Numbered from the stretch's first letter, positions 6,790 through 46,476 are shown. The stretch is 64,000 nt of DNA from Bacilli bacterium (GCA_017454295.1 JAFTDF010000004.1:118776-182775), one strand, 5' to 3'. Translations and numbers: made by a program. Notes: generated from the sequence alone by a model not told the origin.

Positions 6790-8652
6790 TTAAATAGAAC
6801 CATTCATCAAGTCGATCACCAAGAAGACAACGCTGGCAATGAGCAGTAAGACGTTGGGGATGGTGAGCAAGGCACGATAAGCGTTCTTCTTTTGACGTAA
6901 GAGTAACGTAGCGAGTAAGCACATTGCGCCCGCCCCAAGGAAGCCATAGCAATAAGGACCGGTGGCCTCCAAAATTTTCGGGAAGAGGAAGAAGGCCAAT
7001 GCATAAAGGCTGAATAGAATCCCGCTGATGCCAAGGATCTTGGCCCAGACATCCGACCCGCGTTCATCAAAGCCGAAACGACGATGGATGGCAAATAGGG
7101 CGACCGTCACACCGATCACCGGAACGGCAATATAAGATAGACGGTTCACCATGGGCGAGATGTTGGCGGCTTGGGCAACCAAAGGTACCACCACAGCTAA
7201 GACAAGGGGAACGATAATCGCCAAACTCACATAAAGGAGCATCGACATAAAGTCCCAACTCTTGATCACGGTGTTCTTCTCTCGTTTTCCCCAAGGCAAA
7301 CGGATGTTTTCTTGGGTTTCGCCATAAAGATAATGCAGTTCGTCGCAGCCCGACTTCAAAGCAACGCGATGGGCGTGGGGCGAACGGAGCAAATCTTTCT
7401 TAAGCCCACGGAAGGTTTTCTGCTGGGAAGGGGCGAGGTTTTGGGAGAGCTCGTAAAGGGCAGGACCCATCTTTTCGAAATCGCCCCGCTTCTTCTTGCA
7501 ATGGACCAACAGGCTCATCAAGGAGAACTGGCGTTCTTCATCGAGTTGTTGATTCACGGCTTCGCCAAAAACGATCACTATGGTCTCGAAATCGGTTTTC
7601 TTCAATTCCGCGACCAACAATTCGAAATAGGCTTCTTGGAGTTCGGGATCGGCAAGCAAGCGGGCCGTTAAACCTACCGCATATTCTTCATGGAGCAGCA
7701 AAGCCTCGTCTTGGCTTTTGGCGAATTCATAGAAGTCGTCAATGTTCTGGCGTTTGCACTTCTCGACGCCATAGGCGTAATGGAACTCTGCTTCGCTAGG
7801 CAGGGTAAATGCCGCTAGGGCGATGCAGTCCTCGGGAATGTAGTCGCGGTGTTCGTAATAGAAGAGGGCTTGCTCGTAATCGTCCCCTTCGAACGCGGCT
7901 TTGGAAAGATCGTTAAAAGCTCCGTAAACGATTTCCAGGAATTCGTTGCGGCGAGCTTCGGTCCGATTCGAACGCTCCATGCCCGGCTTGGATAGTTCCC
8001 CATCCACCGCAAGGGCGGCAAGGAAATCTTCTTGGGAGAGGATTTGGCCCCGGAATCTGAGCGCGGCATTGGCATAGCCAAAACCAACGAGTTTATCCAA
8101 ATGGTATTGTTTGCTGGCTTCCCCATCGATTTGGGTGCCGAGGTTCTCGGCGATTTGCCGATAAGCATCCATTTTCGCTTCTTCTAAAGCCGGCTGCTCG
8201 GCGCGCAAATTGGCTTCGCCCATGTGGGCATAAACGCAAGCCTTCTCATGACCGAGGATCTCGCGGATAAGCTTTTGGGATTTCAGGGGGATGCCATAAT
8301 CCAAAGGTAGGAATTTGGAATTCAAGGCGTCGATGCCCACAAGCGCTTGCTCGTATTTGCCTTGTTCATCCAACGATTTGACATATTGGAGAACTTCTTC
8401 GAGGTAGGTGGCATAGTAGGCGATGTCTTCTTTGCCTTTGGCGATGTTTTCGATGGGCTTAACGAAAGAGGCCATTTTCTTTTTGGCTTCGAGCAAAGCG
8501 TTGAGATTATCGTGCAAGGCCAATAGGCGTTGTTCGGTCTTTTCCAAATGAATGGAGGCGACGGATTTGATGGCGGAGGCTTCGGCGACGGCTTGGTCGA
8601 GGTCGGCGAGTTGACGCTCAACGAAAGAGGGATTGACTTCGAAATCAGGCAT
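6790..8652 (-). CDS. large hypothetical protein: about 470-aa cytoplasmic alpha-helical domain plus a C-terminal block of 4-5 TM helices
   Basis: The ATG at 8652 is preceded by AGGAGGAACCGCAAA and overlaps the upstream gene stop (coupling). No catalytic motif was recognised. Confidence 0.55.
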   Translation of the reverse strand: MPDFEVNPSFVERQLADLDQAVAEASAIKSVASIHLEKTEQRLLALHDNLNALLEAKKKMASFVKPIENIAKGKEDIAYYATYLEEVLQYVKSLDEQGKYEQALVGIDALNSKFLPLDYGIPLKSQKLIREILGHEKACVYAHMGEANLRAEQPALEEAKMDAYRQIAENLGTQIDGEASKQYHLDKLVGFGYANAALRFRGQILSQEDFLAALAVDGELSKPGMERSNRTEARRNEFLEIVYGAFNDLSKAAFEGDDYEQALFYYEHRDYIPEDCIALAAFTLPSEAEFHYAYGVEKCKRQNIDDFYEFAKSQDEALLLHEEYAVGLTARLLADPELQEAYFELLVAELKKTDFETIVIVFGEAVNQQLDEERQFSLMSLLVHCKKKRGDFEKMGPALYELSQNLAPSQQKTFRGLKKDLLRSPHAHRVALKSGCDELHYLYGETQENIRLPWGKREKNTVIKSWDFMSMLLYVSLAIIVPLVLAVVVPLVAQAANISPMVNRLSYIAVPVIGVTVALFAIHRRFGFDERGSDVWAKILGISGILFSLYALAFFLFPKILEATGPYCYGFLGAGAMCLLATLLLRQKKNAYRALLTIPNVLLLIASVVFLVIDLMNGSI

Positions 8653-8926
8653 TTTGCGGTTCCTCCTCTTCTTCGACGGCAAGGGGGACTTCCAATTTGC
8701 GGAACGCATCTTGGACATCCATATAAGCCAAATTCAAATCGCGAACACCCTGGGAGAAAGCCTGGGTCACGCCGGCTTGGCTTTTAGATAAAGCTTCGGA
8801 GGCGGCGTTGAGCTTCTCCACGGTCTTTTTATGAGAGGTGGCGATTTCCGCTTCTTTTTGTTTGATCACACGGTCGAGATCTCGTGTCTTGGCGCCATAG
8901 ACTTTGGCAAATTCATTCGCAGTCAT
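8645..8926 (-). CDS. small predicted coiled-coil protein (93 aa) with an acidic tail EEEEEPQNA
   Basis: Middle gene of the coupled trio; overlaps neighbours by 14 and 8 nt. Confidence 0.5.
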   Translation of the reverse strand: MTANEFAKVYGAKTRDLDRVIKQKEAEIATSHKKTVEKLNAASEALSKSQAGVTQAFSQGVRDLNLAYMDVQDAFRKLEVPLAVEEEEEPQNA

Positions 8927-9206
8927 CGGGATCTCCTTTCAAACCATAAGCTTGATAGGACGCCAAAATGCTTTCGCAGGCTTTTTGGTCGGCCTCACGG
9001 ATCACTTTTTCGGCGGCGTCTTTTACCCGCTTTTCGGTTTTCTCGATCAACGCATTGACTTGGGCAAGCGTGTCTTCCTGACTCCGCTGATACTCACCAA
9101 GGCCTTCGTCAAATGCCATATCGACGTTTTCATTCAGCGCTTCAATCGCAGCCGCATTGGAAGCGGCCTTCCGCTGGAGCGCCGAAATTTTGGGATTCTT
9201 AGGCAT
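8913..9206 (-). CDS. small predicted coiled-coil protein (97 aa)
   Basis: Strong GAGGGAGG ribosome-binding site 6 nt before the ATG. First gene of the trio. Confidence 0.5.
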   Translation of the reverse strand: MPKNPKISALQRKAASNAAAIEALNENVDMAFDEGLGEYQRSQEDTLAQVNALIEKTEKRVKDAAEKVIREADQKACESILASYQAYGLKGDPDDCE

Positions 9207-9268
9207 AAGAAACCTCCCTCGCTTTTAGACATTTTAACAAGAATGGCGAATTAATAAATCATTATTAA

Positions 9269-10303
9269 TCAGGCTTTGTTGTGCTTTTGGAATGCCGAAG
9301 CCAACATTGGAGAATCCAAGTTGGAAAGATTCTCGAATGTTTCGATGCCAAGCAACAGGAACAAGGCCCCGATTTCAAAAGGCAAGGCAATCGACCAAAG
9401 CGCTTTGGCTTCTTGGGAATATTCGTATTGGTCGGAAAGCAACGAAAGCGTGTCCCGATAAAGTTCCATCGCTTTCTCATATTCCAAATCGGCGGTGCCG
9501 TTTTCCCGAACATAGCCATCGATCATCGTCATGAGTTCGGTTTGCCGGGGAAGGTCAAAGGCCCCTTCACGTAGGAACAAATGAAGCTCTTTGATTTGCT
9601 CCGAATTGAGGTATTTCGATTCTTGAATCGTTTGGCCTTCCGCTGTTTCATCCGGCCAGAAAAGCCTGCAAATCTTCTCTACTTCATCAAAAATCTGAGT
9701 GAATGAGTCGGCTTTTCCATCATAAAGTTCGGTAGTCCCGAATCCATAGGCGGCAAAACAGAAAGGTAGTCCCGCATCCCGTGTCGCCACCCCGTCTTGA
9801 TCGGTGTCGCCGATATAAATGGCGCGTTCGATGCCGTGGCGTTCCATCAAAGCCCGGATGGTCACGGACTTCTCTTTTTTGGTGTCGGACCAACACATAT
9901 GGTCGAGGAATAAGCCGGGGGCCAAAGGCAAGAAGTTTTCGATATAGCCGCTTTGGCAATTGGAGACGATGTAGAGGGGATACCCTGCCTCCTTTAATTT
10001 GGTAAGGGTCTCTAGCTCGTTTTCGAAAAGCTGACCAGGGTGGTTCCTCAGGTATTCCACTTCATAGGCAAAACAGTCGTCGATAAAACGTTTTCTCGCT
10101 TCCGGTTCGAGTTCGCCCAAGGTGATGGAGGCGGCAATTTGGTCCATGGTCCGTCCCATTTGCGAACGAGCCATCTCAGCCGTGATTTCATAGTCACCGG
10201 AAAAATACTGCCGTCCCACGATGGTCCAGGATTCACCCACGGGCTTGCAAGCATCCCATAAGGTGCCATCTAAATCAAAAATCAATGCGGGTTTCGTCTT
10301 CAT
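9269..10303 (-). CDS. HAD-superfamily hydrolase with an extra C-terminal domain of about 140 aa
   Basis: FDLDGTLWD motif I, a downstream SNC motif and a GDTDQD-like motif III. The C-terminal 140 aa has no recognised fold. Confidence 0.7.
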   Translation of the reverse strand: MKTKPALIFDLDGTLWDACKPVGESWTIVGRQYFSGDYEITAEMARSQMGRTMDQIAASITLGELEPEARKRFIDDCFAYEVEYLRNHPGQLFENELETLTKLKEAGYPLYIVSNCQSGYIENFLPLAPGLFLDHMCWSDTKKEKSVTIRALMERHGIERAIYIGDTDQDGVATRDAGLPFCFAAYGFGTTELYDGKADSFTQIFDEVEKICRLFWPDETAEGQTIQESKYLNSEQIKELHLFLREGAFDLPRQTELMTMIDGYVRENGTADLEYEKAMELYRDTLSLLSDQYEYSQEAKALWSIALPFEIGALFLLLGIETFENLSNLDSPMLASAFQKHNKA

Positions 10304-11581: not shown

Positions 11582-11901
11582 GGGCGTTACCTCCGGGCAT
11601 TAAGCATATACCAACGCGCGAAAAGTTGCTCTAAAAACGCCTTTTAGGACCCCAAAAACCATCAAAAAACATAAAAACGGCTGACTATTTTTCACTGAAC
11701 TTTCAAAGTTTTGATAAAGCGCTTTCAATCCAGTTTTCTGTCCTTTTTCAGTCGATGCAGTGCCATTTTCCTCTTTTTAGGAGAGTTCATTTTGGTCTCT
11801 CTTTTTAAGGGTTTCACTCCCCTTTTCATGTTTTTTTCTCTTTTTTGTGGTTTTTCGATTTAACTTGGGTATTATTAAGCCGCCGAAAGGAGGATTTCCA
11901 A

Positions 11902-12915
11902 ATGGCGAACAACAGAAAACCGGTCGTCCCTGTCTTCTTTGGATGCGACCAACGCTTCACACCCTTCCTGAGCGTCGCCCTCATTTCTTTAATCGCGAAC
12001 ACATCCGCCCGGCGTCGTTACGAGATCCATATTCTCCACACCGACATCAACGAAGAAACCCAACGAAAATACCTGGCCTTTGCCAAAAACAACGTCTCGA
12101 TCCAATTCGACGATGTGACCAGCGATATCGCTTCGATCGTCGACCAGCTCCCGATTCGCGACTACTATTCCCCTTCTACCTACTACCGTTTTGTCATCGC
12201 GGCGAATTTCCCGCAATATGACAAAGCCCTTTATATCGATGCCGATACCGCCATCGTCGCCGACGTGGCCAAGCTTTACGACACCAACCTTGGTGACAAC
12301 TATGTCGCCGCCGTCCCCGAAGCCGTCATGAACACCATGGATCCCGCTGGCTTATATGCCGAAAAGGTCCTTGGTATCAACCGCAAGAAATACTTCAATG
12401 CTGGGATGATGCTAATCAACTCCAAGCAGTGGCGAAAAAACGATGTCCTCGGGCAGTTCATCAACCTGATTTCCTTCTACAATTTCGTGGTTGCCCAAGA
12501 TCAGGACTATCTCAACGTCATCTGTAAGAACAAAGTCCATATCCTCCCCCGGAAATGGAATATGGAAGCCATCAAAAACTGGAAGATTTCCGAACACGAC
12601 ATGGGCATCATCCACTATGCTTTTGCCGCCAAGCCCTGGCACGATATCAACTGCCTCTATGGCCAATACTTCTGGAAATACGCTTCCAAATCCCCCGACT
12701 TCATGGAGATCAAATCCCATTTTGCCGGCGTCACTCCGGAAAAGCTCGAAGCGGAAAAGAACGTCGCCCCCGCCGTTTTGGAAATCTGTCTGGCCGAAAT
12801 CGCCCGTCACGACAACTTCCTCCACCGCATCCATTCCAACCGTTATTCCAAGGCTCTTGGCCAACAACCCGTGATCGTTGAGCTCATTTCGCGTCTACGC
12901 GAGAACGAAGCTTAG
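11902..12915 (+). CDS. family 8 glycosyltransferase (LPS alpha-1,3-glycosyltransferase-like)
   Basis: Nucleotide-binding DxD (IDADTAIV) and the GT8 pattern HYAFAAKPW. AAAGGAGG lies 8 nt before the ATG; the longer track ORF start was rejected. Confidence 0.8.
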   Translation: MANNRKPVVPVFFGCDQRFTPFLSVALISLIANTSARRRYEIHILHTDINEETQRKYLAFAKNNVSIQFDDVTSDIASIVDQLPIRDYYSPSTYYRFVIAANFPQYDKALYIDADTAIVADVAKLYDTNLGDNYVAAVPEAVMNTMDPAGLYAEKVLGINRKKYFNAGMMLINSKQWRKNDVLGQFINLISFYNFVVAQDQDYLNVICKNKVHILPRKWNMEAIKNWKISEHDMGIIHYAFAAKPWHDINCLYGQYFWKYASKSPDFMEIKSHFAGVTPEKLEAEKNVAPAVLEICLAEIARHDNFLHRIHSNRYSKALGQQPVIVELISRLRENEA

Positions 12916-12933
12916 TGTTATCATAGTTGCGTC

Positions 12934-13719
12934 ATGGCTGAAAAACTTCCCGACACCATATATTTCAGCGACCCGTTGCACGACGAGTTTTCGACGATGG
13001 AAATCCACGCCGAACACATTGGCAAAGATTATCGCTATATCCGCAACGATACTTTCCTCGGGAAATTAGCCCACTTCTTCTATTTTCGTATCATCGGCAA
13101 GCCTTTGGCTTGGTTTTATCTTAAGTTCAAATTCCGTCATGAAATCGTCGGTAAATGGAAATTAAAACGATATAAGAAGTTCTCGATTTTCCTTTATGGG
13201 AACCACACCCAGATTATTGGGGATGCCCTCATGCCGGCATTCATGGTTTCACCGCGTTCGATCAACGTCATCGTCCATCCCAATAATGTCTTTATTCCCG
13301 GAATCGGGAAATATGTGCCTCACCTTGGCGGACTTCCTCTCCCTGGCGATAAAGAAGCCAAAGCCAATTTCGATAAGGCAATTGATTTGCGCGTCAAGCA
13401 GCATCAACCCATCTTTATCTATCCTGAGGCTCACTTATGGCCCTATTACACCGGGATTCGTCCCTTTGTTTCGGACAGTTTTATTTACCCCGTGTATTAC
13501 GGAATGCCCGTGTTTTGTTTCACCAATACCTATCATGAGCGGAAAAACGGCAAAGTCCGGATCCGTACCTATATCGACGGCCCCTTCTTTGCTAACGGGA
13601 ACCTCAATCCCAAAGAAGCCCGTGAGGATCTACGCAACCGCGTCTATAACCAAATGGTGGAACGGAGCGGCCTAAGCACTTACGAGAAGATCAAATATAT
13701 CGAGAAGAAAAATGGTTAA
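12934..13719 (+). CDS. PlsC/LPLAT-like acyltransferase with an atypical HX5D motif
   Basis: GNHTQIIGD, YPEAHLW and block IV hydrophobics. Paralogous to 14544..15410. Confidence 0.65.
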   Translation: MAEKLPDTIYFSDPLHDEFSTMEIHAEHIGKDYRYIRNDTFLGKLAHFFYFRIIGKPLAWFYLKFKFRHEIVGKWKLKRYKKFSIFLYGNHTQIIGDALMPAFMVSPRSINVIVHPNNVFIPGIGKYVPHLGGLPLPGDKEAKANFDKAIDLRVKQHQPIFIYPEAHLWPYYTGIRPFVSDSFIYPVYYGMPVFCFTNTYHERKNGKVRIRTYIDGPFFANGNLNPKEAREDLRNRVYNQMVERSGLSTYEKIKYIEKKNG

Positions 13720-14542
13720 CCTCCTGTATTGTGGCAACGAAAAAGTCTTCGATGGCATCCTGACAAGTTTGCTATCGGCCGTCAAACGCGACCCGTCTCG
13801 CGATTCGTTCCACGTCTACGTGTTCACCATGGATCTTACGCGCCTCAACCCGGCTTATACCTGCATCTCCGATCGTTTGATTTCGTTCTTGGATGGGGTG
13901 ATGAAATCCTATAACCCCGAGTCCAAAGTCGAAAAAATCGACGTCACCGAGCTTTATGAATCCACCATGGGCCATTCGCCCAACGAAGGCGCTTATTGTT
14001 CGCCTTACACTTTGATTCGCCTTTTGGCGGATCTGGTTCCGAATATGCCGGACCGTCTCCTTTATTTGGATACGGATATCATGTTCAACCGCGATATCCA
14101 TTTGCTTTATGAGCAACCCTTCAACGGGGCGGAATTCGCGGCGGCCAACGACCACTATGGCAAGTATCTCATCAATCCCCGTTATATCAATGCCGGGGTT
14201 TTGCTCTTTGATATGGTCAAATGTCGGGAGACGGGACTATTCGCCAAATCGCGGGATTGGATCAATAAAAAGAAACTGGTCTTCGCCGATCAAAGCGCTT
14301 TGCAACGGGCATGCACCAAAAAACGCCTTCTATCCCAAAAATTCAACGACCAGAAGTTCCTTCACAAAAGCACGGTCGTCCGTCATTTCTCCAAACGTTT
14401 GTTCTGGTTGCCCTACCCCCATACCGACAATATCAAGCAATACCACGTGGAGAAGGTCCACAAAGTATTCCGTTATCATCAATTCGACGATATCTTGGAC
14501 GAATACCTCGTCTTAAAAGCGAAATACGAAGGGGAAGCCTAA
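13712..14542 (+). CDS. family 8 glycosyltransferase (second copy)
   Basis: LDTDIMF DxD and NAGVLLFD motifs. Start overlaps the previous gene by 8 nt. Confidence 0.75.
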   Translation: MVNLLYCGNEKVFDGILTSLLSAVKRDPSRDSFHVYVFTMDLTRLNPAYTCISDRLISFLDGVMKSYNPESKVEKIDVTELYESTMGHSPNEGAYCSPYTLIRLLADLVPNMPDRLLYLDTDIMFNRDIHLLYEQPFNGAEFAAANDHYGKYLINPRYINAGVLLFDMVKCRETGLFAKSRDWINKKKLVFADQSALQRACTKKRLLSQKFNDQKFLHKSTVVRHFSKRLFWLPYPHTDNIKQYHVEKVHKVFRYHQFDDILDEYLVLKAKYEGEA

Positions 14543-14543
14543 C

Positions 14544-15410
14544 ATGATCGAAAAAGATCCCGAAAGATTGGAGGTCATCGCTCGTTACGAAGCCTTGGAA
14601 GCCAAGGGGATTTTCGATTTGGATGTGGAAGAAGATCCCGAAGGAAGTATCATCCTCCCGGGGATGGTGGATTATAAGCAAAAGAAACTCTCCACCAGAA
14701 TCAAAGCCAAATGGACCTTCCATCTGGCTCGTAAATTCCTCAACCGCATCATCAAGAAGGGGCTTCTCGTGATCAAAGATGTCATCGGGGTCGAAAACCT
14801 CGACGATCTCCAAAGCGGCGCCGTCTTAACCTGCAACCATTTCAATGCGCTCGATTCCTTTGCCATGCAAGTGGCCTACGAACGTTCTACCGTTTCGAAA
14901 AAACGCAAGCTCTTCCGGGTCATTCGCGAAGGCAACTACACCTCCTTCCCCGGCTTCTATGGCAAATTGATGCGGGCTTGCAACACCTTGCCCCTATCCT
15001 CCAACATGGCCACCATGAAAGAGTTTCTCGATGGGGTGGATTACCAACTCAAAAAAGGCAACCTCGTCTTGGTCTATCCCGAGCAATCCATGTGGTGGAA
15101 TTATCGTAAACCCAAACCCTTGAAGAAGGGGGCCTTCAACTTCGCCGCGAAAGCCGGCGTACCGGTCGTCCCCATCTTCATTTGCATGGAAGATAGCGAT
15201 CACATCGGCCCCGATGGCTTCCCCGTTCAAGAGATGACCATCTTCGTCGATAAGCCCATTTTCCCCGACTTAAAAAAGAACATCGTCGCCAACACCCAAG
15301 CGATGATGGATGAGAATTATCGACGCTGGAAAACCATCTATGAGGAGTTCTATAAGATTCCTTTGGTTTATACCTGCGATCAGAATAAAAAACCGCAAAA
15401 ACCCAATTAA
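14544..15410 (+). CDS. 1-acylglycerol-3-phosphate-acyltransferase-like (PlsC family)
   Basis: Canonical NHFNALD (HX4D), YPEQSMW and PVVP blocks. Confidence 0.75.
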   Translation: MIEKDPERLEVIARYEALEAKGIFDLDVEEDPEGSIILPGMVDYKQKKLSTRIKAKWTFHLARKFLNRIIKKGLLVIKDVIGVENLDDLQSGAVLTCNHFNALDSFAMQVAYERSTVSKKRKLFRVIREGNYTSFPGFYGKLMRACNTLPLSSNMATMKEFLDGVDYQLKKGNLVLVYPEQSMWWNYRKPKPLKKGAFNFAAKAGVPVVPIFICMEDSDHIGPDGFPVQEMTIFVDKPIFPDLKKNIVANTQAMMDENYRRWKTIYEEFYKIPLVYTCDQNKKPQKPN

Positions 15411-15422
15411 AGGATAAAAAAT

Positions 15423-16181
15423 ATGAGATTTGCCGCGTTTAACGTTAATGGCATTCGCGCCATTTTGGGGAAGGGCTTTGCCGAAAGCTTCTCCGCCCTC
15501 CATCCCGATTTCCTCGTCTTAGGGGAAACCAAGCTTTCCGATCCCAATGCCCCCTTCCCTTATCTTCCGGAAGGCTATTCCGTCTACCACACCGAATCCA
15601 AATTAAGGAAGGGTTATTCCGGCGTTGCGATCTACGCTAAGGAAGCACCGCTCTCCGTCCATTATGGATTAAAGGATGGCAAGTATGACGAGGAAGGCCG
15701 CGTCATCACTTTGGAATATCCCGATTTCTTTTTAGTCGGTGCCTATGTCCCCAATGCCGGCGATGGCCTGAAGCGTCTCGACTTCCGTCTTCAATATGAG
15801 CAAGACCTCGTCTCCTATTTGGATGAACTCGATGCCATCAAGCCCGTCATCTATACCGGCGATTTGAACGTGGCCCACCAAGAAATCGACATCAAGAACC
15901 CCAAAGGCAACGAACGCAATCCCGGCTTCACCATCGAGGAGCGCACCGCCTTCTCCGATTTGCTTTCCCATGGCTATGTGGATACCTATCGTTATCTCCA
16001 CCCCGATACCGTCAAATATTCTTGGTGGAGTTATCGTTTCCACGCCCGCGAAAACAACGCCGGCTGGCGCATAGACTATTTCGTGGTTTCGAAGCGTCTG
16101 CTCCCGCGCGTCAAGGATGCCGAGATCCATAACGACATTTTCGGATCGGACCATTGTCCGGTCACTTTGGATTTGGAATGA
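15423..16181 (+). CDS. xth: exodeoxyribonuclease III
   Basis: 252 aa; FNVNG, GDLNVAH and SDHCPV motifs of the Xth/ExoA EEP nucleases. Confidence 0.9.
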   Translation: MRFAAFNVNGIRAILGKGFAESFSALHPDFLVLGETKLSDPNAPFPYLPEGYSVYHTESKLRKGYSGVAIYAKEAPLSVHYGLKDGKYDEEGRVITLEYPDFFLVGAYVPNAGDGLKRLDFRLQYEQDLVSYLDELDAIKPVIYTGDLNVAHQEIDIKNPKGNERNPGFTIEERTAFSDLLSHGYVDTYRYLHPDTVKYSWWSYRFHARENNAGWRIDYFVVSKRLLPRVKDAEIHNDIFGSDHCPVTLDLE

Positions 16182-16585: not shown

Positions 16586-16626
16586 TTTTTTCTTCGTTTA
16601 GAGTAGATTGCGTGTATTATTTCCCT

Positions 16627-17331
16627 ATGGGAAAGATCATCATCGAACATTTGCACAAAACCTATCATCCGGGAGAAGAAAACGAAGTCCGGGCTTTAGA
16701 CGACATCAATTTCACCCTTGAAGAAGGGGAATTCGTCGTGATCCTTGGACCTTCCGGGGCTGGAAAATCCACCTTGCTCAACATCATGGGTGGTATGGAT
16801 ACCCCCACTTCCGGTGTCTACGAAATCGCCGGGCGCGACGTCGCCGGGTTTAAGGATAAGGAACTGACGCTCTTCCGTAGGAAAGACGTCGGTTTCGTTT
16901 TCCAATTCTATAACCTTATCGGCAACCTGAACGCTTTGGAAAACGTCGAATTAGCCGCTTCGATCGCCGACGCCCCTTTTGATGCCAAAGAAACTTTAGA
17001 AAAGGTGGGCTTAGGAAAACGTCTCGGCAATTATCCTTCCCAGCTTTCCGGCGGCGAGCAACAACGCACCGCGATCGCCCGTGCCCTTGTGAAAAACCCC
17101 GCGTTGCTTCTTTGCGATGAGCCCACCGGGGCTTTGGATAGTAAAACCGGGGCCTCCATCATCGAATTGCTTTATGGCCTTAGCCGCGATTATAAAAAGA
17201 CCGTCGTCATGGTCACCCATAACGCGGCAATCGCCCAAGTTGGGGACCGCGTCATTCGCATCGCCGATGGCAAAGTCTTATCCAACGAGCTCAACCCCAA
17301 CCCTCTAAAACCGAGTGAGGTAGACTGGTGA
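16627..17331 (+). CDS. ABC transporter ATP-binding protein (MacB/LolD-type)
   Basis: Walker [18 protein letters not shown] signature and Walker [19 protein letters not shown] lies 6 nt upstream of the ATG with no SD. Confidence 0.85.
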
Positions 17332-19904
17332 AAAAGGTCCGCCTGACTTCTTTATTCCTTCGCCTAGCGGGACGTCAAAACCGCAAAGGCTGGGCTATGT
17401 CGGCCGCCGTCGTGGCCATTGGTGGCATCGCCATCACCCTTTTCAGTGGTTTTTTGGCCAATGCCGCTTCTTTGCAAACGCGTTTGGATACGATGATTCC
17501 GCAAAGCTCGCCTGCCGACGTCTATGTCACCACCGATCCCCGTAAGGGTACCGATGCCGCGGAAGCGGATAAATTAGAACATACCATCTCCGGCATCGAT
17601 GCGATCGAATCCCGTTTCTATACCTATTCCACCTTGGCGAGCAAAAACGCCTTGATGGTCATCGAGCCCAACCTCCCGTCTTTAGGCCATCCCTATGAAT
17701 ATCCCCTGCTTGGGAAGAACCATAGCCAAGAACACTACTTCCTCGTCAACGACTTCCTTACCCACAAATCCACCGCGGTGAGCGAAGAGGATGCCATCCA
17801 TGTGGACGAAGACGTCAAAGTCATGTTGCCGATGGCCGGTTTTTCCCTTGATTCCAGCATGATCGATTCCTTGTCGCTTTTCCTAAAAGCCGGCAAGACC
17901 AATCCCTTTGCCCAAGATAATTTAGAACTCCATTTCACGATCACGGGCACGATGAAACACCTTGAAAACGCGGCAATGGGCACCTTCAATCCTACGACCT
18001 TTTTGGTTTCCTCTTCCTATTTCCGCGACACCTTGCGCGACACCTTGCTCGATTGTTTCACCGAAACCGGCGTCCGTTTGATTTGGGAGCTCGGCTTCCA
18101 CAACAAACTCGGCTGGGGTGATGGCGATCCCTATGGGAGCACGGTGAACTTCCCTTTATCCAACCAATTCTTGTTGAAACTCGCCCCCGGTGTGTCGCCC
18201 GCCGAAACCAAGACGAAAGTCCAAGCCTATTTTGCCAATAAACCCGCGAATAACCTCTATCAGGTTCAAACCTTGGATGAACTCACTTCCATTTCATCGG
18301 TACGGACCGAATTATCGCAGGCTTGGCAATTAACCTTCGTCTTCCCCGTGGTCTTCTTTGCCGTCGCGTTGCTGGTGATTTTGATTTCCGTACGCCAGAT
18401 GATCTTGCGAGAACGAATCGATATTGGCACCTTTAAAGCCCTCGGGATCAACCAGCGGGAAATCCACCGCCACTACGCTTTGAAAACTTTTATTTTGGTG
18501 GCTCTAGGGACCCTGGCTGGGGAAATCATCGGCCCAATGCTCGTCCCTGCGATTTTAGGCAACAAATACAATATCCTTTATTCTTTACCAAGTCGCCAAT
18601 ACGTCTTCCCCGTGTGGCAGTGTTTGCTCGCCGCCGCTGTATTTATCGGGGTGGCGTTGCTCGTCACGTATTTGGTATCTCGCCGCGAGATTAAGCGCAA
18701 GCCCGTCGAATCCATGCGTGGGGAAGCGCCCACGAAAAAGAACTCCTCTTCGGTAGGAAAACGGAAAAGTGGTTTCTTCGGCCTTTCTGCGAAAATGGCC
18801 GGGCGCAGCATCGGCAGCGATTGGGTCCGCACCTTGATGGTCATCATCGGCGTCATGGGCTGCACGGCTTTGCTTTGCTGCGGCTATGGCATCGAAGATA
18901 CCGTCCATTATGGCGTGGATACCGATCCGATGATCGTTTCCGGCGCCGACATTACCGTAGCCCTCATTGAAAACCGCAGCGTCGAAAAGCTGACCAACGA
19001 CCTCAATATCCTCGACGAAAACGGCCAGCCCTTGGTTTATGGCTATCAACTCTATTCCCGTCAGAATGAGAACATCCGCTCCGAAAAGGATTCTTACTTC
19101 ACGACCATCTATGCCTTAAATGATTACACGCTGGTCTCTGGGCAGAGTGGAAAGATCCATTTCCATAAGGAGTTCCCAGTCGACCAAGTCGTCATCTCCG
19201 AAAAAGTCGCCCGCGCTTTGCAAGTCAGCAAAGGCCAAACCATCACGTTTAACCTTGGCGAAGCAACCGTCACCGCTTCAGTGTTCGACACCTTGCCCAT
19301 CTTCTTCTCCAATGGCGTTTACATCCATGCCGATTCGCCCTTACTAGGCGCCAATACGGTGAAGGCGTTCAACTCGGTGTGGTTAGATGCCGTCCCGGGC
19401 AAAGCAAACGAACTTGAAACCAAAGCCGCGTCGATTCCTTCGGTCGCCGTTTGCGATACCGAAGTGAAATGGCGCACCCGTGTCTCGGAAGTTATGTCTT
19501 CGGTATTAGTCATGACCAACGCGATTAAGGTCTTCGCTTTCCTGCTTGCCGCAGTCGTCCTTTATAACTTAGGGTTGTTGAATTTCCAAGAACGGCAACG
19601 GGAAATCGCCACCATGAAGGTCTTGGGTTTCAAAGGGCGTGAGATCATGGTCTCCCTTTTCATCGAGACGTTGTTCCTCACTTTGATTGGGATCCTCTTA
19701 GGGCTCGCCGTGGGATTCCCCTTCACGAAGTTGGTCTTGTTCATTAACCAAGTCGAGCTCGTCGACTTCCTCTATACCGTCGCCCCACTTTCTTACCTCA
19801 TCTCTTTTGCCTTTACCTTCGTCTTAAGCGCCGTCACCACTTTCTTACTAGGGGGACGGATTCGCAAAATCATGGCGGTCGAATCGCTCAAATCCGTGGA
19901 ATAG
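17328..19904 (+). CDS. ABC transporter permease with two FtsX/MacB-type modules (858 aa)
   Basis: GTG start overlaps the ATPase stop. There are 4+4 TM helices with large extracytoplasmic domains after TM1 of each half. Confidence 0.8.
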   Translation: MKKVRLTSLFLRLAGRQNRKGWAMSAAVVAIGGIAITLFSGFLANAASLQTRLDTMIPQSSPADVYVTTDPRKGTDAAEADKLEHTISGIDAIESRFYTYSTLASKNALMVIEPNLPSLGHPYEYPLLGKNHSQEHYFLVNDFLTHKSTAVSEEDAIHVDEDVKVMLPMAGFSLDSSMIDSLSLFLKAGKTNPFAQDNLELHFTITGTMKHLENAAMGTFNPTTFLVSSSYFRDTLRDTLLDCFTETGVRLIWELGFHNKLGWGDGDPYGSTVNFPLSNQFLLKLAPGVSPAETKTKVQAYFANKPANNLYQVQTLDELTSISSVRTELSQAWQLTFVFPVVFFAVALLVILISVRQMILRERIDIGTFKALGINQREIHRHYALKTFILVALGTLAGEIIGPMLVPAILGNKYNILYSLPSRQYVFPVWQCLLAAAVFIGVALLVTYLVSRREIKRKPVESMRGEAPTKKNSSSVGKRKSGFFGLSAKMAGRSIGSDWVRTLMVIIGVMGCTALLCCGYGIEDTVHYGVDTDPMIVSGADITVALIENRSVEKLTNDLNILDENGQPLVYGYQLYSRQNENIRSEKDSYFTTIYALNDYTLVSGQSGKIHFHKEFPVDQVVISEKVARALQVSKGQTITFNLGEATVTASVFDTLPIFFSNGVYIHADSPLLGANTVKAFNSVWLDAVPGKANELETKAASIPSVAVCDTEVKWRTRVSEVMSSVLVMTNAIKVFAFLLAAVVLYNLGLLNFQERQREIATMKVLGFKGREIMVSLFIETLFLTLIGILLGLAVGFPFTKLVLFINQVELVDFLYTVAPLSYLISFAFTFVLSAVTTFLLGGRIRKIMAVESLKSVE

Positions 19905-24151: not shown

Positions 24152-24853
24152 ATGACCGAAACCAAACGCCTCATTGAATCCACCTTAGTGGATCATTCCC
24201 AAAAACTAAAATTGCCCGCCTTATTCGGCTTATTCCAAGACATCGCCACCGCCGATGCCGAACAAATCGGCTTTGGCCACGCCAATACCACCGATCAAGG
24301 AAAACTCTGGGTCTTTACCCGCGTCTATGTCGAAATTCCCGAATACCCGCCCTATCTTTCCGTGTCGAACTTCTTCACCTATCCAGGCAACCGCAAGGTC
24401 TTTGCCTTCCCCCGCCACTTAAAAGTGACCTCCCAATATGGAAAGGTGCAAGCTCGGATCTCTTCGATTTGGGCTTTGATTGACGCCGCCTCTCGCAAAC
24501 TTATTTTCAAGCCCGATCTTCCCGAAGTCGAAGGCCATCAAGAAGAGGGGGAACTTCCTCTTCCCGGCAAAGTCGTTCCCACCACCGCTTCCTTTGCCTA
24601 TTCCCGCCGCATCCGCCATAGCGATATCGATATCAACGGCCATTTAAACAACACCCGTTATATCGAAATGATCGTCGATCTCCACGACGAGGCTTTTTAT
24701 CAGCATAAAGAAATCGCCTCCCTCCTCATCAATTTCGAGACGGAATCTTCCGAGGGGGAGACGATCGAGATCTACGCTAACGAAGACGGGACCTATGTCT
24801 ATGGCAAATGCGATGACCGCCTTTGCTTCGAGGCCAATCTTACCTATCGTTAA
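24152..24853 (+). CDS. acyl-ACP thioesterase-family protein
   Basis: Double hotdog with a conserved N-x-H (DINGHLNNTRY) in the second half. Confidence 0.65.
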   Translation: MTETKRLIESTLVDHSQKLKLPALFGLFQDIATADAEQIGFGHANTTDQGKLWVFTRVYVEIPEYPPYLSVSNFFTYPGNRKVFAFPRHLKVTSQYGKVQARISSIWALIDAASRKLIFKPDLPEVEGHQEEGELPLPGKVVPTTASFAYSRRIRHSDIDINGHLNNTRYIEMIVDLHDEAFYQHKEIASLLINFETESSEGETIEIYANEDGTYVYGKCDDRLCFEANLTYR

Positions 24854-25893: not shown

Positions 25894-25980
25894 GGCCCCC
25901 TGGTGGAATGGTAGACGCGATGGACTCAAAATCCATTATCTGATGAGGATGTGTCGGTTCGAGTCCGACGGGGGCCACCA
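25894..25980 (+). tRNA. tRNA-Leu (anticodon CAA), class II with a long variable arm, CCA encoded
   Basis: GGCCCCC acceptor arm paired with GGGGGCC-A-CCA, D-arm GGAATGGTAGAC, anticodon loop CTCAAAA, T-arm GTCGGTTCGAGTCCGAC. Confidence 0.85.
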
Positions 25981-25992
25981 TGGAAGACTCAC

Positions 25993-26018
25993 CTCTCGAT
26001 TGCGGGAGGTTTTCTTTT
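25993..26018 (+). terminator. intrinsic terminator after tRNA-Leu (CCTCTCG-att-CGGGAGG then TTTTCTTTTG)
   Basis: Stem-loop followed by a T-run, directly downstream of the tRNA. Confidence 0.55.
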
Positions 26019-26085
26019 GCACAAAACGAAATCATCCTTTTTTAATAAAAAAGAAAGGTTACAATTAAACAACAAGAGGTCACCT

Positions 26086-27012
26086 ATGAAACATTTAATC
26101 GTCGTCAACGTTAACGCCGGCGGCTTCAATGAGCAATTTGAAGCCCAAATCAAAACCGCTTTCGAAGGTTTGGATTACGAAATCTACAAAACCACCGGAC
26201 CCAAAAGCGTCATCCCCTATCTCAAAGACTATTTGAAGAAGCACACCAAAGACACCGTCCGCGTCTATGCCTGCGGTGGCGATGGTACCGTCCACGAAGT
26301 CGTCAATGGCTGCGTCGGTGCCAAAAACGTCGAAATCGCCATCTATGCCATCGGTACCGGCAACGATTTCGTCAAAATCTATGGCGGGAAAGAAAAATTC
26401 CAAGATTTCAAAACCTTAATCGAAGGCAAAGCCTCCCCCATCGACATTTCCGAAATCCAAGGTGGGGATTTGCAAGAGCCCCTATATTCGGTCAACGTCA
26501 TCAACTTCGGCTTCGATGCCATCGTCGGGGCCATGGGCAACTACTATAAGGAACATGGCCTTCCCGAAGCCGCCCAAAAGAAGGGCCTCGGCCCCTATGA
26601 CTACGCCTTGAAGAACGATGCCATGAAACATGGTCGCTTCAACGATATAGAAGTCTATGCCGATGGCGAAAAGCTCAACGAAAAGCAAATGCTCCTTGCC
26701 ACCTTGGCCCAAGGCCAATACGTCGGCGCCAAGTTCCGTTGCGCCCCCAAGTCCGACAATACCGACGGCTTGATCGACGTCTGCGTCCTCAAGACCATGA
26801 CCTTCCTTGGTCTAGGTATGATCATCGGCACCTATACCAAAGGCAAACACCTCGACCGCAAGCGGCGCAAAATCGTCTATCGTCAAGCCAAGGAAATCAA
26901 AATGGTTTCCCCCAAGGACTTCGATGTCTGCGTCGATGGCGAAATGATCAAAGGCAACAACTTCACCGTGAAGGTCTGCCCCGGTGCCATCGCCTTGGTC
27001 TTACCCAAGTAA
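26086..27012 (+). CDS. DagK/YegS-family lipid kinase
   Basis: DAGK_cat motif ACGGDGTVHEVVNG. AAGAGG ribosome-binding site before the ATG. The N-terminal track extension (GTG inside the tRNA) was rejected. Confidence 0.8.
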   Translation: MKHLIVVNVNAGGFNEQFEAQIKTAFEGLDYEIYKTTGPKSVIPYLKDYLKKHTKDTVRVYACGGDGTVHEVVNGCVGAKNVEIAIYAIGTGNDFVKIYGGKEKFQDFKTLIEGKASPIDISEIQGGDLQEPLYSVNVINFGFDAIVGAMGNYYKEHGLPEAAQKKGLGPYDYALKNDAMKHGRFNDIEVYADGEKLNEKQMLLATLAQGQYVGAKFRCAPKSDNTDGLIDVCVLKTMTFLGLGMIIGTYTKGKHLDRKRRKIVYRQAKEIKMVSPKDFDVCVDGEMIKGNNFTVKVCPGAIALVLPK

Positions 27013-27823: not shown

Positions 27824-29641
27824 CTATTCTTTGCAATCTGCAAGGAAAACAAGCGAGTTTTCGTAACCGGCTTCAAGACGACTATTGGTGAGTTTTTCCG
27901 GATGGAAGCCCACATAGAAAGCCAGTTCGGCGGAAAGGCCAATGAAATAAGACCCAGGGAATAATAGCCAAGGCAAAACGCCGTTATAGCCGATGGCGGC
28001 CCCACCGATGGCTTGAAAGACAAAAGCGAATACATAGAAGCAAAGTTCCGCCCCCACCACTTGGGGATCGACGTGGCGGATCAAACAATACAACACCAAG
28101 CCGATCAAATAGAGCAGGCCCACGCCTTCGACGATGAAATAACCAGCAAAGGAATAACCGAGGAACAACGCGATATTCAAAATCAGGATCATGGCATAGC
28201 TGCAAGCCCGTAACCAAGGGAACCCTTGTTTCGGGGGATAGGCGACTTTGGTGGTTTCTTCTTTCAAATGGTTGGGACTAAGCCAGGGGAGGATCACGAT
28301 GAAGGCATAGCCGATGCTTTCCACCATCGCGTCGAAAAGGGAGGCGCTTTCGATGAAGCCGCGTGCCACCAAAGGCAAAGCCAAAATCAAATAAAAGACA
28401 TGGTCCTTCATCGCGCCTTTGCAGGAACGGGCGAAGCGATAACCAAGATATCCTAGCAAAGCCCCGAAAGCGGCCAATCTCAATAAGCCACCGCGTCCCA
28501 AGATTTCCAAAGCGACATTATGGGCCGTGCCATAGGAAGGCACATCCATGGCCACCGACATCAAATAGGAATAAATGACGTCCCCTTGGCCAAATAGCCA
28601 ATACACGGTCCCTTGATTGGTGAGGGCAAGCGAATCCTTCCAGATCGCCGCACGCGTGCCGACATTCGACCCTTCCCCGTTTTGAAAGAAAGAGGCCAAG
28701 GCGTTCCAGAAGGAAGCAAAGAAATTGGGTTTAGCGATGGCAAGCACCACCACACCGACAACGCCCACGGCAACGATGCCTAAGGGAATCGCCGCCTTCT
28801 TCCACGCGAAGGTTTTCTCTTGCTTGCGCCGGATGAGACGATAAACCATCAAAGAGGCGATGACGAAGACGGCCATCAGCAAGGAGGCTTTGCTGCCGGA
28901 GAAAAGAATCATCACGGCAAAGAAGACCATCATCAAATAACGCCACGGGCGGCCAAAACGTTCTAGTAACGCGGCCTCGGCGAATAAGGCCAGCAGCAAA
29001 TAATTCCCATACACGTTTTTACTGCCGGTATAGGAAACGATATTCGCGGAGAAAATGCCCTCGTTTAAGGCTTTGCCATATTCCCCCGCTTCGGTAAAGA
29101 GGCTATAAAGGGCCATCGATAGGCCTAGAAGAATCAAAATCTCATAGATCCAGGACCCACTATATTTGTTCTTTTTCCCGGCGGGGAAGAAACTGAAAAA
29201 CAAAAACAGCGTGAAACTCGTCAACACCCCGGAGACGAAAGCCTGCCCGGCGATTTGGTATTGATAATCGGGAATGGTGATGGACCCTTTGACGCCGGTG
29301 AAGGAATAGAAATTCTTATGGCAAAGCACGGCAATGAGGTTCCCGATGCCATAAACGGCGAAAATCCCCAAGAGCACATAGTCGATTTTGACATGGAAGA
29401 CCCTGATACCCATGAAGACATAAACGACCCCGACCAAAAAGGCGGCGGCGGCGAGGGTATAGAAGACCTCCAAGCGATAGAGATATTGGAATTCCGGGGT
29501 GAAACGGAATAACGGGATTTGGATAGCACAGCAAGAAAACACGGCGAACATCACAAACAGGAATTGATACCAAAAATAAGGCAATTCCGCGGCGGTCTCA
29601 GATCGAGTTGCATAACGTTGTTTCGCGCGTGCAAATAGCAT
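27824..29641 (-). CDS. O-antigen ligase / Wzy_C-family polytopic membrane protein (605 aa)
   Basis: More than 12 TM helices with a central loop carrying LFSGSKASLL, which is O-antigen-ligase-like. Confidence 0.6.
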   Translation of the reverse strand: MLFARAKQRYATRSETAAELPYFWYQFLFVMFAVFSCCAIQIPLFRFTPEFQYLYRLEVFYTLAAAAFLVGVVYVFMGIRVFHVKIDYVLLGIFAVYGIGNLIAVLCHKNFYSFTGVKGSITIPDYQYQIAGQAFVSGVLTSFTLFLFFSFFPAGKKNKYSGSWIYEILILLGLSMALYSLFTEAGEYGKALNEGIFSANIVSYTGSKNVYGNYLLLALFAEAALLERFGRPWRYLMMVFFAVMILFSGSKASLLMAVFVIASLMVYRLIRRKQEKTFAWKKAAIPLGIVAVGVVGVVVLAIAKPNFFASFWNALASFFQNGEGSNVGTRAAIWKDSLALTNQGTVYWLFGQGDVIYSYLMSVAMDVPSYGTAHNVALEILGRGGLLRLAAFGALLGYLGYRFARSCKGAMKDHVFYLILALPLVARGFIESASLFDAMVESIGYAFIVILPWLSPNHLKEETTKVAYPPKQGFPWLRACSYAMILILNIALFLGYSFAGYFIVEGVGLLYLIGLVLYCLIRHVDPQVVGAELCFYVFAFVFQAIGGAAIGYNGVLPWLLFPGSYFIGLSAELAFYVGFHPEKLTNSRLEAGYENSLVFLADCKE

Positions 29642-33892: not shown

Positions 33893-34522
33893 CTAGAAAA
33901 ACTCTTCTTCTAGACGTAGACAAAGATAGTGATAGATGGGTAAATGCAGTTCCTGAACCTTAAAGGTTTCGCTTTCGTCTACGGCGATGGTCATATCGGC
34001 GATTTGCTTGAGTTCGCCACCGCTTCTGCCGGTCAAACCTAAAACTTTTAAACCCAAGGCTTTGGCGCATTGGGCACCTAAAGAGACGTTGCGGGCATTC
34101 CCCGAAGTGGAGATGCCCAAAAACACATCGCCCGGCTTGCCAAGGACGTTGACTTGTTGGGCATATACGAGTTCCGCACCATGAGGGACGTCATTGGCGA
34201 AGGCGGTATTGAGCCCGGCATGATTATGCAAAGCGATGGCGGGAAAGCCTTCCTGAAGTTCATCGCATAATAGCTGGCCGTCTTTTTGTCGAAGCAAATT
34301 AGCCGCTTTCGATTGAGGCACGGTCCGTTTCTTTTTAAATCCCTTCATCAGTTCGCCGACGATATGATCGGCATCGGCGCAGCTGCCACCGTTACCGCAA
34401 ACCAAAAGCTTGCCGCCGTTTTGGTAGCACGCCTTCAAAACCGCATAAGCGGCTTCGATTTGGTCTTTGCTAGAAGCGAGGACCGGATAACGTTGTATGA
34501 GATCTTCGATGGTATATTGCAT
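33893..34522 (-). CDS. gmhA: SIS-domain phosphoheptose isomerase
   Basis: VCGNGGSCADADH motif and length match GmhA. Confidence 0.7.
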   Translation of the reverse strand: MQYTIEDLIQRYPVLASSKDQIEAAYAVLKACYQNGGKLLVCGNGGSCADADHIVGELMKGFKKKRTVPQSKAANLLRQKDGQLLCDELQEGFPAIALHNHAGLNTAFANDVPHGAELVYAQQVNVLGKPGDVFLGISTSGNARNVSLGAQCAKALGLKVLGLTGRSGGELKQIADMTIAVDESETFKVQELHLPIYHYLCLRLEEEFF

Positions 34523-35532: not shown

Positions 35533-35542
35533 GGTTGGAATA

Positions 35543-35571
35543 GAAAAAAGGCCGAAAGAAGACTTCCGACC
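35543..35571 (-). terminator. intrinsic terminator directly after gpmA (GGTCGGAAG-tctt-CTTTCGGCC then TTTTTTCTATT)
   Basis: Stem-loop and T-run seen on the minus strand. Confidence 0.55.
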
Positions 35572-35578
35572 ATAGGGA

Positions 35579-36289: not shown

Positions 36290-36353
36290 TTTTGGCTCCT
36301 TATTTTTCTGTGTGCAATTATAGCAAGTATGGGCGGGTGCGCAAATAAGCGCG

Positions 36354-37673: not shown

Positions 37674-37754
37674 AGGGTTCTCCGTAAAGTTTCTTTAAGA
37701 AAGCGACCCCATTTTATACTAATCGCCAAGGGAAAACCACCATGCGTTATGCGT

Positions 37755-37777
37755 AAACAAAAAGGCGGATAACCGCC
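37755..37777 (-). terminator. intrinsic terminator after rfbG (GGCGG-ttat-CCGCC then TTTTTGTTT on the minus strand)
   Basis: Seen directly. It separates rfbF-rfbG from rfbH, which has its own TATAAAAT plus GGAG start region. Confidence 0.5.
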
Positions 37778-37784
37778 TTTGGTA

Positions 37785-39621: not shown

Positions 39622-39740
39622 AAAGACACCTCTCGGATATTCGTGGACAAATTATATCAAATTGTCTCATTTAGATAAAAGCGAATCGACGCAAACCAAT
39701 CCCATTGGATTCGAATAATATTCGAAATGTAAAAGAGCTT

Positions 39741-41003: not shown

Positions 41004-41021
41004 GGTTGTTTCTTTCTGGGA

Positions 41022-41933: not shown

Positions 41934-42109
41934 AAATCAGCCTCGTTTTGTTGTTTCAAAGGTCCTCCCTATTCTATACCGATTGGAGTTCTCTCCCAAC
42001 TGGCTTTTTCGCAATAACAGGTTTCCTCCTGTTTTCAAATATAGAAAACAAAGGGCTTTTGTAGTAATGTATCCTTGCGATTTGTAAACCACCCACAAAG
42101 GAGATTCCT

Positions 42110-42880: not shown

Positions 42881-42882
42881 TT

Positions 42883-46466: not shown

Positions 46467-46476
46467 GGAGAATCCC

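Follow-up and report, generated by a model that had tools for sequence, protein, structure and literature searches.

The window, a stretch of 64,000 nucleotides from a Bacilli bacterium (GCA_017454295.1, JAFTDF010000004.1:118776-182775), contained at 11902-15410 a cassette of four co-directional genes encoding two family-8 glycosyltransferases (GT8a and GT8b) and two acyltransferases (ATa and ATb), for which a role in glycolipid synthesis was predicted (Table 1). The overlapping or near-abutting boundaries given in a preliminary description of this DNA were reproduced when the open reading frames (ORFs) were measured; the junction of GT8a and ATa was +18 nt, the start of GT8b lay inside the end of ATa (-8 nt), and GT8b and ATb were +1 nt apart. 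A strong Shine-Dalgarno sequence read from the DNA, AAAGGAGGA at 11886-11894, preceded the ATG of GT8a at 11902, indicating that the start coordinate proposed earlier was right. The promoter of the cassette presumably lies in the 320-nt intergenic region upstream of GT8a. However, a consensus promoter scan around the cassette gave nothing convincing on the + strand, a terminator consensus scan was likewise uninformative, and no regulatory RNA was found when the region upstream of GT8a was scanned with Rfam.

Table 1. Cassette genes and other features of the window
Feature	Position	Strand	Basis or remark
GT8a, retaining-type family-8 glycosyltransferase, 337 aa	11902-12915	+	ORF, PF01501
ATa, divergent acyltransferase of predicted GPAT/PlsC fold, 261 aa	12934-13719	+	model, family motifs
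GT8b, divergent family-8 glycosyltransferase, 276 aa	13712-14542	+	ORF, PF01501
ATb, PlsC-superfamily acyltransferase, 288 aa	14544-15410	+	ORF, PF01553
Intergenic region, 320 nt, between divergent M18 aminopeptidase gene and GT8a	11582-11901	+	sequence
xth (exodeoxyribonuclease III)	15423-16181	+	TIGR00633, E 6e-85; 12 nt past ATb
MacB/FtsX-type ABC exporter system	16612-19904		1.2 kb downstream of cassette
Acyl-ACP (acyl carrier protein) thioesterase gene	24152-24853		9-11 kb downstream, with next row
DagK/YegS-family lipid kinase gene	25951-27012
Wzy_C (O-antigen-ligase-like) membrane protein	27824-29641	-
Sugar-nucleotide/polysaccharide cluster	~34500-46500		GHMP kinase, DegT aminotransferase, 4,6-dehydratase-type epimerase, thiamine pyrophosphate-dependent enzyme
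ORF of 642 aa	6790-8718	-	no Pfam match; long hydrophilic N-terminal part, multi-span hydrophobic C-terminus
Three ORFs of 420-618 aa	39741-41003, 42883-44649, 48142-49998		no Pfam match
Fourth such ORF, 595 aa	51163-52950		no Pfam match

Distribution, gene order and fusions

When a one-genome-per-species collection was scanned for relatives of ATa, at least 588 loci were recovered, contradicting the initial view that GT8 enzymes are uncommon in such an arrangement. Gene order and neighbours were read in the best 80 of these loci. The other three genes almost always adjoined ATa, showing that the clustering of the four genes was not due to chance. The cassette was carried by Bacilli, Clostridia, Erysipelotrichaceae, Acholeplasmatales and Treponema. 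Carriers were mostly gut and rumen bacteria; among them were genomes from the gut of humans, pigs and ruminants that bear the labels Roseburia, Agathobacter, Lachnospira, Ruminococcus and Treponema. The ATa family itself comprised 325 clusters (50% identity) at E <= 1e-30 in a search of 1.84 billion cluster representatives. No account of the cassette emerged from a full-text literature search covering GT8 enzymes, acyltransferases and glycolipids of Firmicutes, Lachnospiraceae or Clostridia.

In 47 of the 80 loci the order was ATa-GT8b-GT8a~ATb (the tilde marking a fusion), with the last two genes joined to encode one protein of 585-620 aa; these loci were mostly from Clostridia, with one each labelled Bacilli, Erysipelotrichaceae, spirochaete and unclassified. 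The same order without fusion was observed in six loci of Clostridia and Erysipelotrichaceae. Treponema and other spirochaetes had the order GT8a-ATb-ATa-GT8b (9/80), two of them with a tandem second GT8b copy (L038 7745-8575 and L072 7731-8561). Seven loci held ATa-GT8b only, three of these at contig ends, and five held partial sets (two ATa-GT8b-GT8a, two ATa only and one with ATa after a fused GT8a~ATb); contig ends accounted for four of the five. The order of the window, GT8a-ATa-GT8b-ATb, was found in the remaining six loci, belonging to close relatives of the window and to one metagenome-assembled genome (MAG) of Erysipelotrichaceae. The fused GT8a~ATb protein carried both PF01501 and PF01553, the conserved N-terminal helix region of ATb forming the linker, and the C-terminus of the window GT8a and the N-terminus of ATb aligned to either side of this linker, so that the window order looks like an ATa-GT8b pair set into the junction of GT8a and ATb. 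The alternating order is a lineage-specific rearrangement, and the mechanistic meaning first attached to strict alternation was not upheld.

The second pair of genes was also found fused. ATa~GT8b fusions were present in P0259, P0262 and P0373, and the GT8 domain of P0259 was 48% identical to the window GT8b (E 4e-88). Relatives of ATb at 54-58% identity sat in full cassettes. A GT8a/ATb module independent of ATa/GT8b was considered and found unsupported, all three ATb relatives on long contigs lying in full cassettes. The functional unit is the four-gene set, made of two pairs each able to be covalently fused. Conserved clustering across phyla, together with the GT8a~ATb and ATa~GT8b fusions, suggests that the four enzymes act stepwise on one molecule, as had been proposed from the window alone. 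ATa-type domains also occurred in GT4~ATa fusions of about 640 aa (P0293, P0321 and P0327; loci L086-L089), which kept the HX5D motif described below and stood alone without other cassette genes. The best NCBIfam matches of their GT4 domain were IagA/BgsA, the transferase of the lipoteichoic acid (LTA) glycolipid anchor, and MGlcDAG synthase, with scores far under the curated cut-offs.

Across the 80 loci the genes flanking the cassette were not conserved, so that the cassette appears autonomous. No flippase, reductase or CDP-alcohol transferase was found when these were sought among the neighbours across loci. Upstream of GT8a in the window lay genes for an M18 aminopeptidase and a HAD hydrolase, both in divergent orientation. 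The xth gene, which is probably co-transcribed with the cassette in the lineage of the window, directly followed ATb only in the close relatives L002-L005 among the loci examined, placing it outside the conserved cassette. The acyl-ACP thioesterase and DagK/YegS-family kinase genes further downstream indicate that the host handles acyl-ACP and diacylglycerol (DAG)-type lipids.

Some neighbours recurred sporadically, namely an XRE-type helix-turn-helix (HTH) protein, DegV, a tetratricopeptide repeat protein (in Treponema) and ABC exporters. The XRE-family HTH_3 protein, whose C-terminal half is hydrophobic, was encoded divergently just upstream of ATa in seven loci (L006, L010, L012, L016, L040, L048 and L063), and also at L081/L082 4629-5330 and L086 1999-2562, recurring upstream of a GT4~ATa fusion too; it is a candidate membrane-linked regulator. 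DegV, a fatty-acid-binding protein of FakB type, adjoined the cassette in three Clostridia loci (L029 9371-10213, L035 4109-4987 and L048 9475-10314), a hint that the pathway draws on exogenous fatty acids. ABC exporters were found 1.2 kb past the cassette in the window, directly after the cassette at L091 7846-11301 (an adaptor, ABC and MacB set) and, as horA, within the Lactobacillaceae version of the cassette (L083 4861-6612); these three adjacencies were unrelated contexts.

Further variants were observed. An extra degenerate GT8 domain was fused ahead of ATb in three Clostridia loci (L016, L040 and L063, ~8560-10190), and a third PF01553 acyltransferase gene lay past ATb at L091 6848-7720. 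The 243-kb plasmid of Roseburia sp. 831b carried an unfused ATa-GT8b-GT8a-ATb set (L084 7001-10437) that was divergent, at 32-37% identity to that of the window, and the same plasmid record held a second ATa match. Locus L024, labelled Desulfovibrionaceae, shared neighbours with the spirochaete locus L039, and L057, labelled Bacteroidaceae, had the Treponema order; these two MAG labels are probably binning errors.

Folds and motifs of the four enzymes

ATb matched PF01553 with E 6.4e-16 (58.8 bits; gathering cut-off 23). ATa alone scored E 0.13 (12.5 bits against the cut-off of 23) and had no significant NCBIfam match. When members of the ATa family were scanned, 29/29 matched PF01553 at E <= 1 (best 2.5e-7), and profile-profile comparison of ATa with ATb (hhalign) gave a probability of 98% (E 1.2e-13). 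Searching the sequences of the Protein Data Bank returned no match to ATa, alone or as a profile, and spurious matches only to ATb alone. The AlphaFold model of ATa (pLDDT 88) had Foldseek matches at E <= 0.001 only to PatA, PlsC, LpxM and GPAT1, and that of ATb (pLDDT 87) only to GPATs, PlsC, PatA and LpxM, so the models place both proteins in the GPAT/PlsC α/β fold. The top query-normalised TM-scores were 0.51 for ATb, with the plastid GPATs 1k30 and 8ia1, and 0.52 for ATa, with PlsC 5kym. The top Foldseek E-value of both was that of PatA, the mannose-6-O-acyltransferase of phosphatidylinositol mannoside (PIM) synthesis. The PF01553 matches of its family, the profile comparison with ATb, the predicted fold and the invariant H91-x5-D97 show that ATa is a genuine member of the acyltransferase superfamily. 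The family assignments made at the outset were correct for all four proteins, by Pfam and, for ATa, by family, profile and model.

The H91-x5-D97 motif of ATa (GNHTQxxxDA) was invariant in all 29 ATa sequences and was kept in the Lactobacillaceae, Roseburia-plasmid and Treponema homologues, giving ATa the spacing HX5D and not the classical HX4D of PF01553. The corresponding motif of ATb, NHFNALD (NHFxxxD), was HX4D and invariant in 25 sequences. The two spacings had been read correctly in the preliminary description. However, HX5D was not the unusual feature it had been taken for, being already documented in SqdA, in OlsF's N-terminal domain (OlsF-N) and in SalA. Its conservation is strict in all three; it is described for SalA (PMC8319176) and is shared by Sinorhizobium meliloti SqdA with OlsF-N and SalA, the HX5D enzymes being separate from the HX4D enzymes in a tree (bioRxiv 10.1101/2022.08.18.504050). 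All three act on a lyso-lipid that is not a phospholipid, to which they attach the second acyl chain (bioRxiv 10.1101/2022.08.18.504050).

PlsC motifs I, III and IV were recognisable in ATb, which has YPEQSMW and VPVVP; ATa has the motif YPEAHxWP (YPEAHLW in the window). When profiles were aligned to PlsC of Thermotoga maritima (TmPlsC, 5kym), YPEQSMW of ATb fell on FPEGTRS and YPEAHLW of ATa at the same place, the Arg of the TmPlsC PEGTR being replaced by Met in ATb and Leu in ATa. This residue, Arg159, is reported to coordinate the phosphate of lysophosphatidate in TmPlsC, and it is replaced also in SalA, an enzyme whose substrate is not a phospholipid (PMC8319176). Having lost this phosphate-binding Arg, ATa and ATb are probably not lysophosphatidate acyltransferases. 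It is very improbable that the two are ordinary lysophosphatidate or glycerol-3-phosphate acyltransferases and that the GT8 genes are unrelated neighbours, although database names suggest phospholipid synthesis and weak matches to TIGR00530 and Aas-type models were obtained. The scores of ATb were far under the NCBIfam equivalog cut-offs for PlsC (TIGR00530, 43.3 bits against 102.95; PRK15018, 16.8 against 501), and an NCBIfam scan gave no match of ATa to either model. Covalent fusions to GT8 and GT4 domains, and the accessory, plasmid-borne state of the cassette in Lactobacillaceae, also speak against such a coincidence.

Both glycosyltransferases matched PF01501 (gathering cut-off 24.3), GT8a with E 9e-46 (156.9 bits) and GT8b with E 8.6e-14 (52.2 bits). 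The DxD motif was IDADT in GT8a and LDTDI in GT8b. In 71 GT8a sequences Y.D.D, QD.DYLN and H....PW were kept at >=95%, and in 74 GT8b sequences LYLD.D, NAGV, FAD..A and RHFS were conserved, so that the GT8 motif set, including the conserved NAG and (D)Q(D) region, was present in both. The family predicts a retaining (α) transfer from a UDP-sugar. The nearest solved relatives of GT8a were WbbM (6u4b, 1.7e-22) and LgtC (1g9r, 7e-21), with GlyE (5gvv) also among its structure-sequence matches; GT8b matched LgtC at 0.008. No clear signal peptide or transmembrane segment was found in any of the four proteins using 19-residue hydropathy windows, none of which clearly exceeded the usual transmembrane threshold; the highest Kyte-Doolittle mean (1.61) fell within ATb, on its buried strand of motif IV, indicating that the proteins are cytoplasmic or peripheral.

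Homologues flanking horA in beer-spoilage bacteria

When plasmids were searched with the ATa protein, matches were obtained on those of beer spoilers, namely Pediococcus claussenii, P. damnosus, P. inopinatus, Levilactobacillus brevis, Loigolactobacillus backii, Fructilactobacillus lindneri and Secundilactobacillus paracollinoides. On pPECL-8 of P. claussenii and pUCCLBBS124_D of L. brevis, each of the four window genes had a homologue beside horA, the GT8b-like gene on one side and the ATa-like, GT8a-like and ATb-like genes, in this order, on the other. The window proteins matched these plasmids in tblastn with E 1.7e-53 to 1.8e-30 and identities of 33% (GT8b), 37% (ATa), 34% (GT8a) and 31% (ATb). 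The horA-linked ATa-like protein kept ANHTQPLGDA, with its HX5D spacing, and YPEAHVWPYYTKIRPF. A DegV gene was also present on the L. brevis horA plasmid (L085 1302-2150). Relative to this gene set, noticed before in beer spoilers, the window cassette is a chromosomal, rearranged and distant variant.

The gene gtfD15 of this L. brevis plasmid was treated by Feyereisen and colleagues in 2020; it is reportedly a GT8 gene, by a secondary citation, and is said in the title of that work to be involved in hop tolerance. From its position as the 15th coding sequence of the plasmid we take it to be the GT8b-like gene. The horA-flanking genes fall into two families, that of lysophospholipid acyltransferases and GT8 (PMC4394401), and four of the five were each transcribed at a level more than 3-fold higher than that of horA in beer (PMC3765258). 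Two glycosyltransferases, two acyltransferases and DegV were specific to the plasmids of beer spoilers (PMC6533708 Table 6). These distant homologues of the cassette are conserved, beer-induced neighbours of horA whose role in hop tolerance was flagged and never explained, and no product of the horA-flanking genes was reported in the literature found.

The horA-flanking homologues were termed 'phospholipid or cell wall biosynthesis' genes (PMC3765258, PMC4394401), and this label, given without further data, would allow a non-lipid target such as a wall polymer, a lipoteichoic-acid chain, a secreted oligosaccharide or a protein. GT8 enzymes elsewhere do glycosylate proteins and polysaccharides, GlyE and WbbM being among the matches. 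Nevertheless, such a target is improbable: the four proteins have neither signal peptide nor transmembrane segment, the GPAT/PlsC fold serves lipid acylation in all structural matches of ATa and ATb, and no flippase, polymerase or undecaprenyl-phosphate transferase was conserved beside the cassette in the loci examined.

Predicted pathway and comparison with known systems

The conserved unit, the reciprocal fusions and the lipid-type fold of the acyltransferases suggest that the four genes probably form a single, self-contained glycolipid pathway, with an acylated α-glycosyl membrane lipid as its most likely product. From the first proposal of an acylated di-glycosyl glycolipid, the glycolipid was retained as the best guess, and a di-glycosyl form is part of the favoured route. 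That route is head-group first; its step order and first acceptor are put forward tentatively, as a proposal somewhat short of likely. The enzymes would use UDP-hexose together with activated fatty acids to make a neutral α-glycosyl acyl-lipid on the cytoplasmic side of the membrane. GT8a would put an α-hexose onto a small glycerol-type acceptor, ATb would attach the first acyl chain, ATa would attach the second as an HX5D 'lyso-lipid' acyltransferase, and GT8b would finally add a second α-hexose, giving a lipid of dihexosyl-diacylglycerol type. ATb was placed as the first acylator because most Clostridia carry it as a fusion with GT8a and its fold is closest to soluble GPATs, and ATa as the second because of its HX5D lyso-lipid type and its closest fold match, PlsC. 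The head-group-first order was preferred since there are exactly two acyltransferases for the two chains of a diacyl lipid, since the gene order of Treponema and the two types of fusion are collinear with it, since a precedent exists for a GT8 enzyme with an HX5D acyltransferase, and since ATb leans towards GPAT and ATa towards PlsC. By analogy with the distant horA-linked homologues, the lipid may remodel and harden the envelope, lowering its permeability to membrane-active lipophilic weak acids and ionophores.

Several points weigh against this interpretation. The evidence is entirely sequence-based, and the product has been seen in no experiment. A reductase or phosphatase for making free glycosyl-glycerol (an analogue of SqdC or GgpP) is missing from the cassette. 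The TM-scores were low (0.41-0.56) and the differences among GPAT, PlsC and PatA small, the HX5D motif of ATa could be convergent with that of SqdA, OlsF and SalA, and the horA-linked homologues were just 31-37% identical, making the transfer of their role to the cassette weak. The GT4~ATa fusions, with a GT4 domain weakly like DAG- or glycolipid-utilising transferases, fit the acylation of a sugar on a DAG-based glycolipid at least equally well. Lactobacilli make glycosyl-DAG by GT4 enzymes, so a second route would be partly redundant there. The picture taken in full, of a pathway independent of phosphatidate and DAG that starts from a soluble glycerol-type acceptor, uses ordinary hexoses, was spread by horizontal gene transfer in gut and rumen Firmicutes and spirochaetes and is the biochemical basis of the horA-linked envelope adaptation in beer spoilers, is unlikely.

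The main rival, a decoration resembling PIM synthesis, is possible, though doubtful. Here an existing DAG, glycosyl-DAG or LTA anchor made by housekeeping GT4 or GT28 enzymes would be the acceptor, and each module would add an α-hexose and then esterify a sugar hydroxyl, giving a tri- or tetra-acylated oligoglycosyl-DAG and mirroring PimA/PatA/PimB'. The cassette does consist of two paralogous modules of glycosyltransferase and acyltransferase, each known as a fusion, and such a decoration would dispense with the missing supply of free glycosyl-glycerol. Known bacterial GT8 enzymes mostly extend sugar acceptors (WaaO, LgtC and WbbM), and acylated glycosyl-DAGs with unknown acyltransferases occur in Firmicutes and Acholeplasma. 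The Foldseek ranking of PatA and the GT4 matches of the GT4~ATa fusions, far under cut-offs as they are, point the same way. However, neither ATa nor ATb matched PF03279, the family of PatA, LpxL and LpxM, and the top TM-scores went to PlsC and GPAT, not to PatA. Base glycolipids differ among the phyla carrying the cassette, so a common acceptor would need to be assumed. Moreover, the characterised HX5D enzymes all acylate the lipid backbone and not the sugar (bioRxiv 10.1101/2022.08.18.504050).

The cassette probably represents an orphan four-enzyme lipid pathway, biochemically uncharacterised. The identity of its product would name a new class or decoration of bacterial membrane lipid, would test head-group-first glycolipid synthesis outside Alphaproteobacteria, and could explain tolerance to membrane-active acids and ionophores. 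Cultured carriers are Treponema sp. C6A8, Roseburia sp. 831b, L. brevis and P. claussenii. Being widespread in gut anaerobes, the cassette is a worthwhile, not extraordinary, target.

Among known systems, the horA-flanking set encodes proteins that are cytoplasmic, as are the four of the window. It lies on plasmids and is interrupted by horA, an ABC transporter gene on the opposite strand, whereas the window cassette has no HorA-type ABC gene, has housekeeping flanks (M18 aminopeptidase and xth) and has a different gene order; beer-induced transcription and the link to hop tolerance are documented for the Lactobacillaceae set only. WaaO/RfaI, LgtC and WbbM, GT8 enzymes of the lipopolysaccharide (LPS) core and O-antigen, were the best sequence matches of GT8a and GT8b and have DxD, NAG and DQD-type motifs in common with them. 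However, the scores were far under equivalog cut-offs (94 against 461 bits), and these enzymes act in LPS, whereas the cassette has no LPS context and its hosts are mostly monoderm Firmicutes, or Treponema. PlsC and GPAT acyltransferases share the predicted fold of ATa and ATb (TM 0.46-0.56), and ATb has the catalytic His-Asp motif together with motifs III (PE) and IV (VPxxP); they differ from the cassette proteins in the phosphate Arg, in the spacing found in ATa, in the PlsC cut-offs that ATa and ATb fall far under, and in the fusions to glycosyltransferases.

Glycogenin is a GT8 enzyme in CAZy. In the SqdD/SqdC/SqdA route of Rhizobiales and Rhodobacterales, which leads to sulfoquinovosyl-diacylglycerol, a GT8-type transferase is paired with an HX5D acyltransferase, as GT8 and ATa are in the cassette, and the head group comes first with acyl-ACP as donor. 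The glycogenin-like SqdD glycosylates a C3 acceptor, and SqdA then acylates sulfoquinovosyl-(monoacyl)glycerol with acyl-ACP (bioRxiv 10.1101/2022.08.18.504050). The route was reported as confined to Alphaproteobacteria (bioRxiv 10.1101/2022.08.18.504050). It uses one glycosyltransferase and one acyltransferase, whereas the cassette has two of each, and neither SqdB (UDP-sulfoquinovose synthase) nor SqdC (reductase) was found in the cassette or recurring in the flanks of the 80 loci. Only Firmicutes homologues were found when plasmids were searched with ATa in tblastn. Rhizobium GT8 genes recovered from plasmids with GT8a in tblastn lay in a polysaccharide cluster and not in a sqd operon. By analogy, SqdD/SqdA is the closest functional precedent for a GT8 enzyme working with an HX5D acyltransferase.

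In the PimA/PatA/PimB' system of Mycobacterium, which makes acylated PIMs, peripheral enzymes of the cytoplasm glycosylate and acylate one membrane lipid in alternation. Its transferases belong to GT4 and their acceptor is phosphatidylinositol, whereas those of the cassette are GT8; PatA belongs to the LpxL family (PF03279), whereas ATa and ATb match PF01553 only and resemble PatA at the level of the fold alone. In the logic of its enzymes, the cassette resembles both SqdD/SqdA and PimA/PatA.

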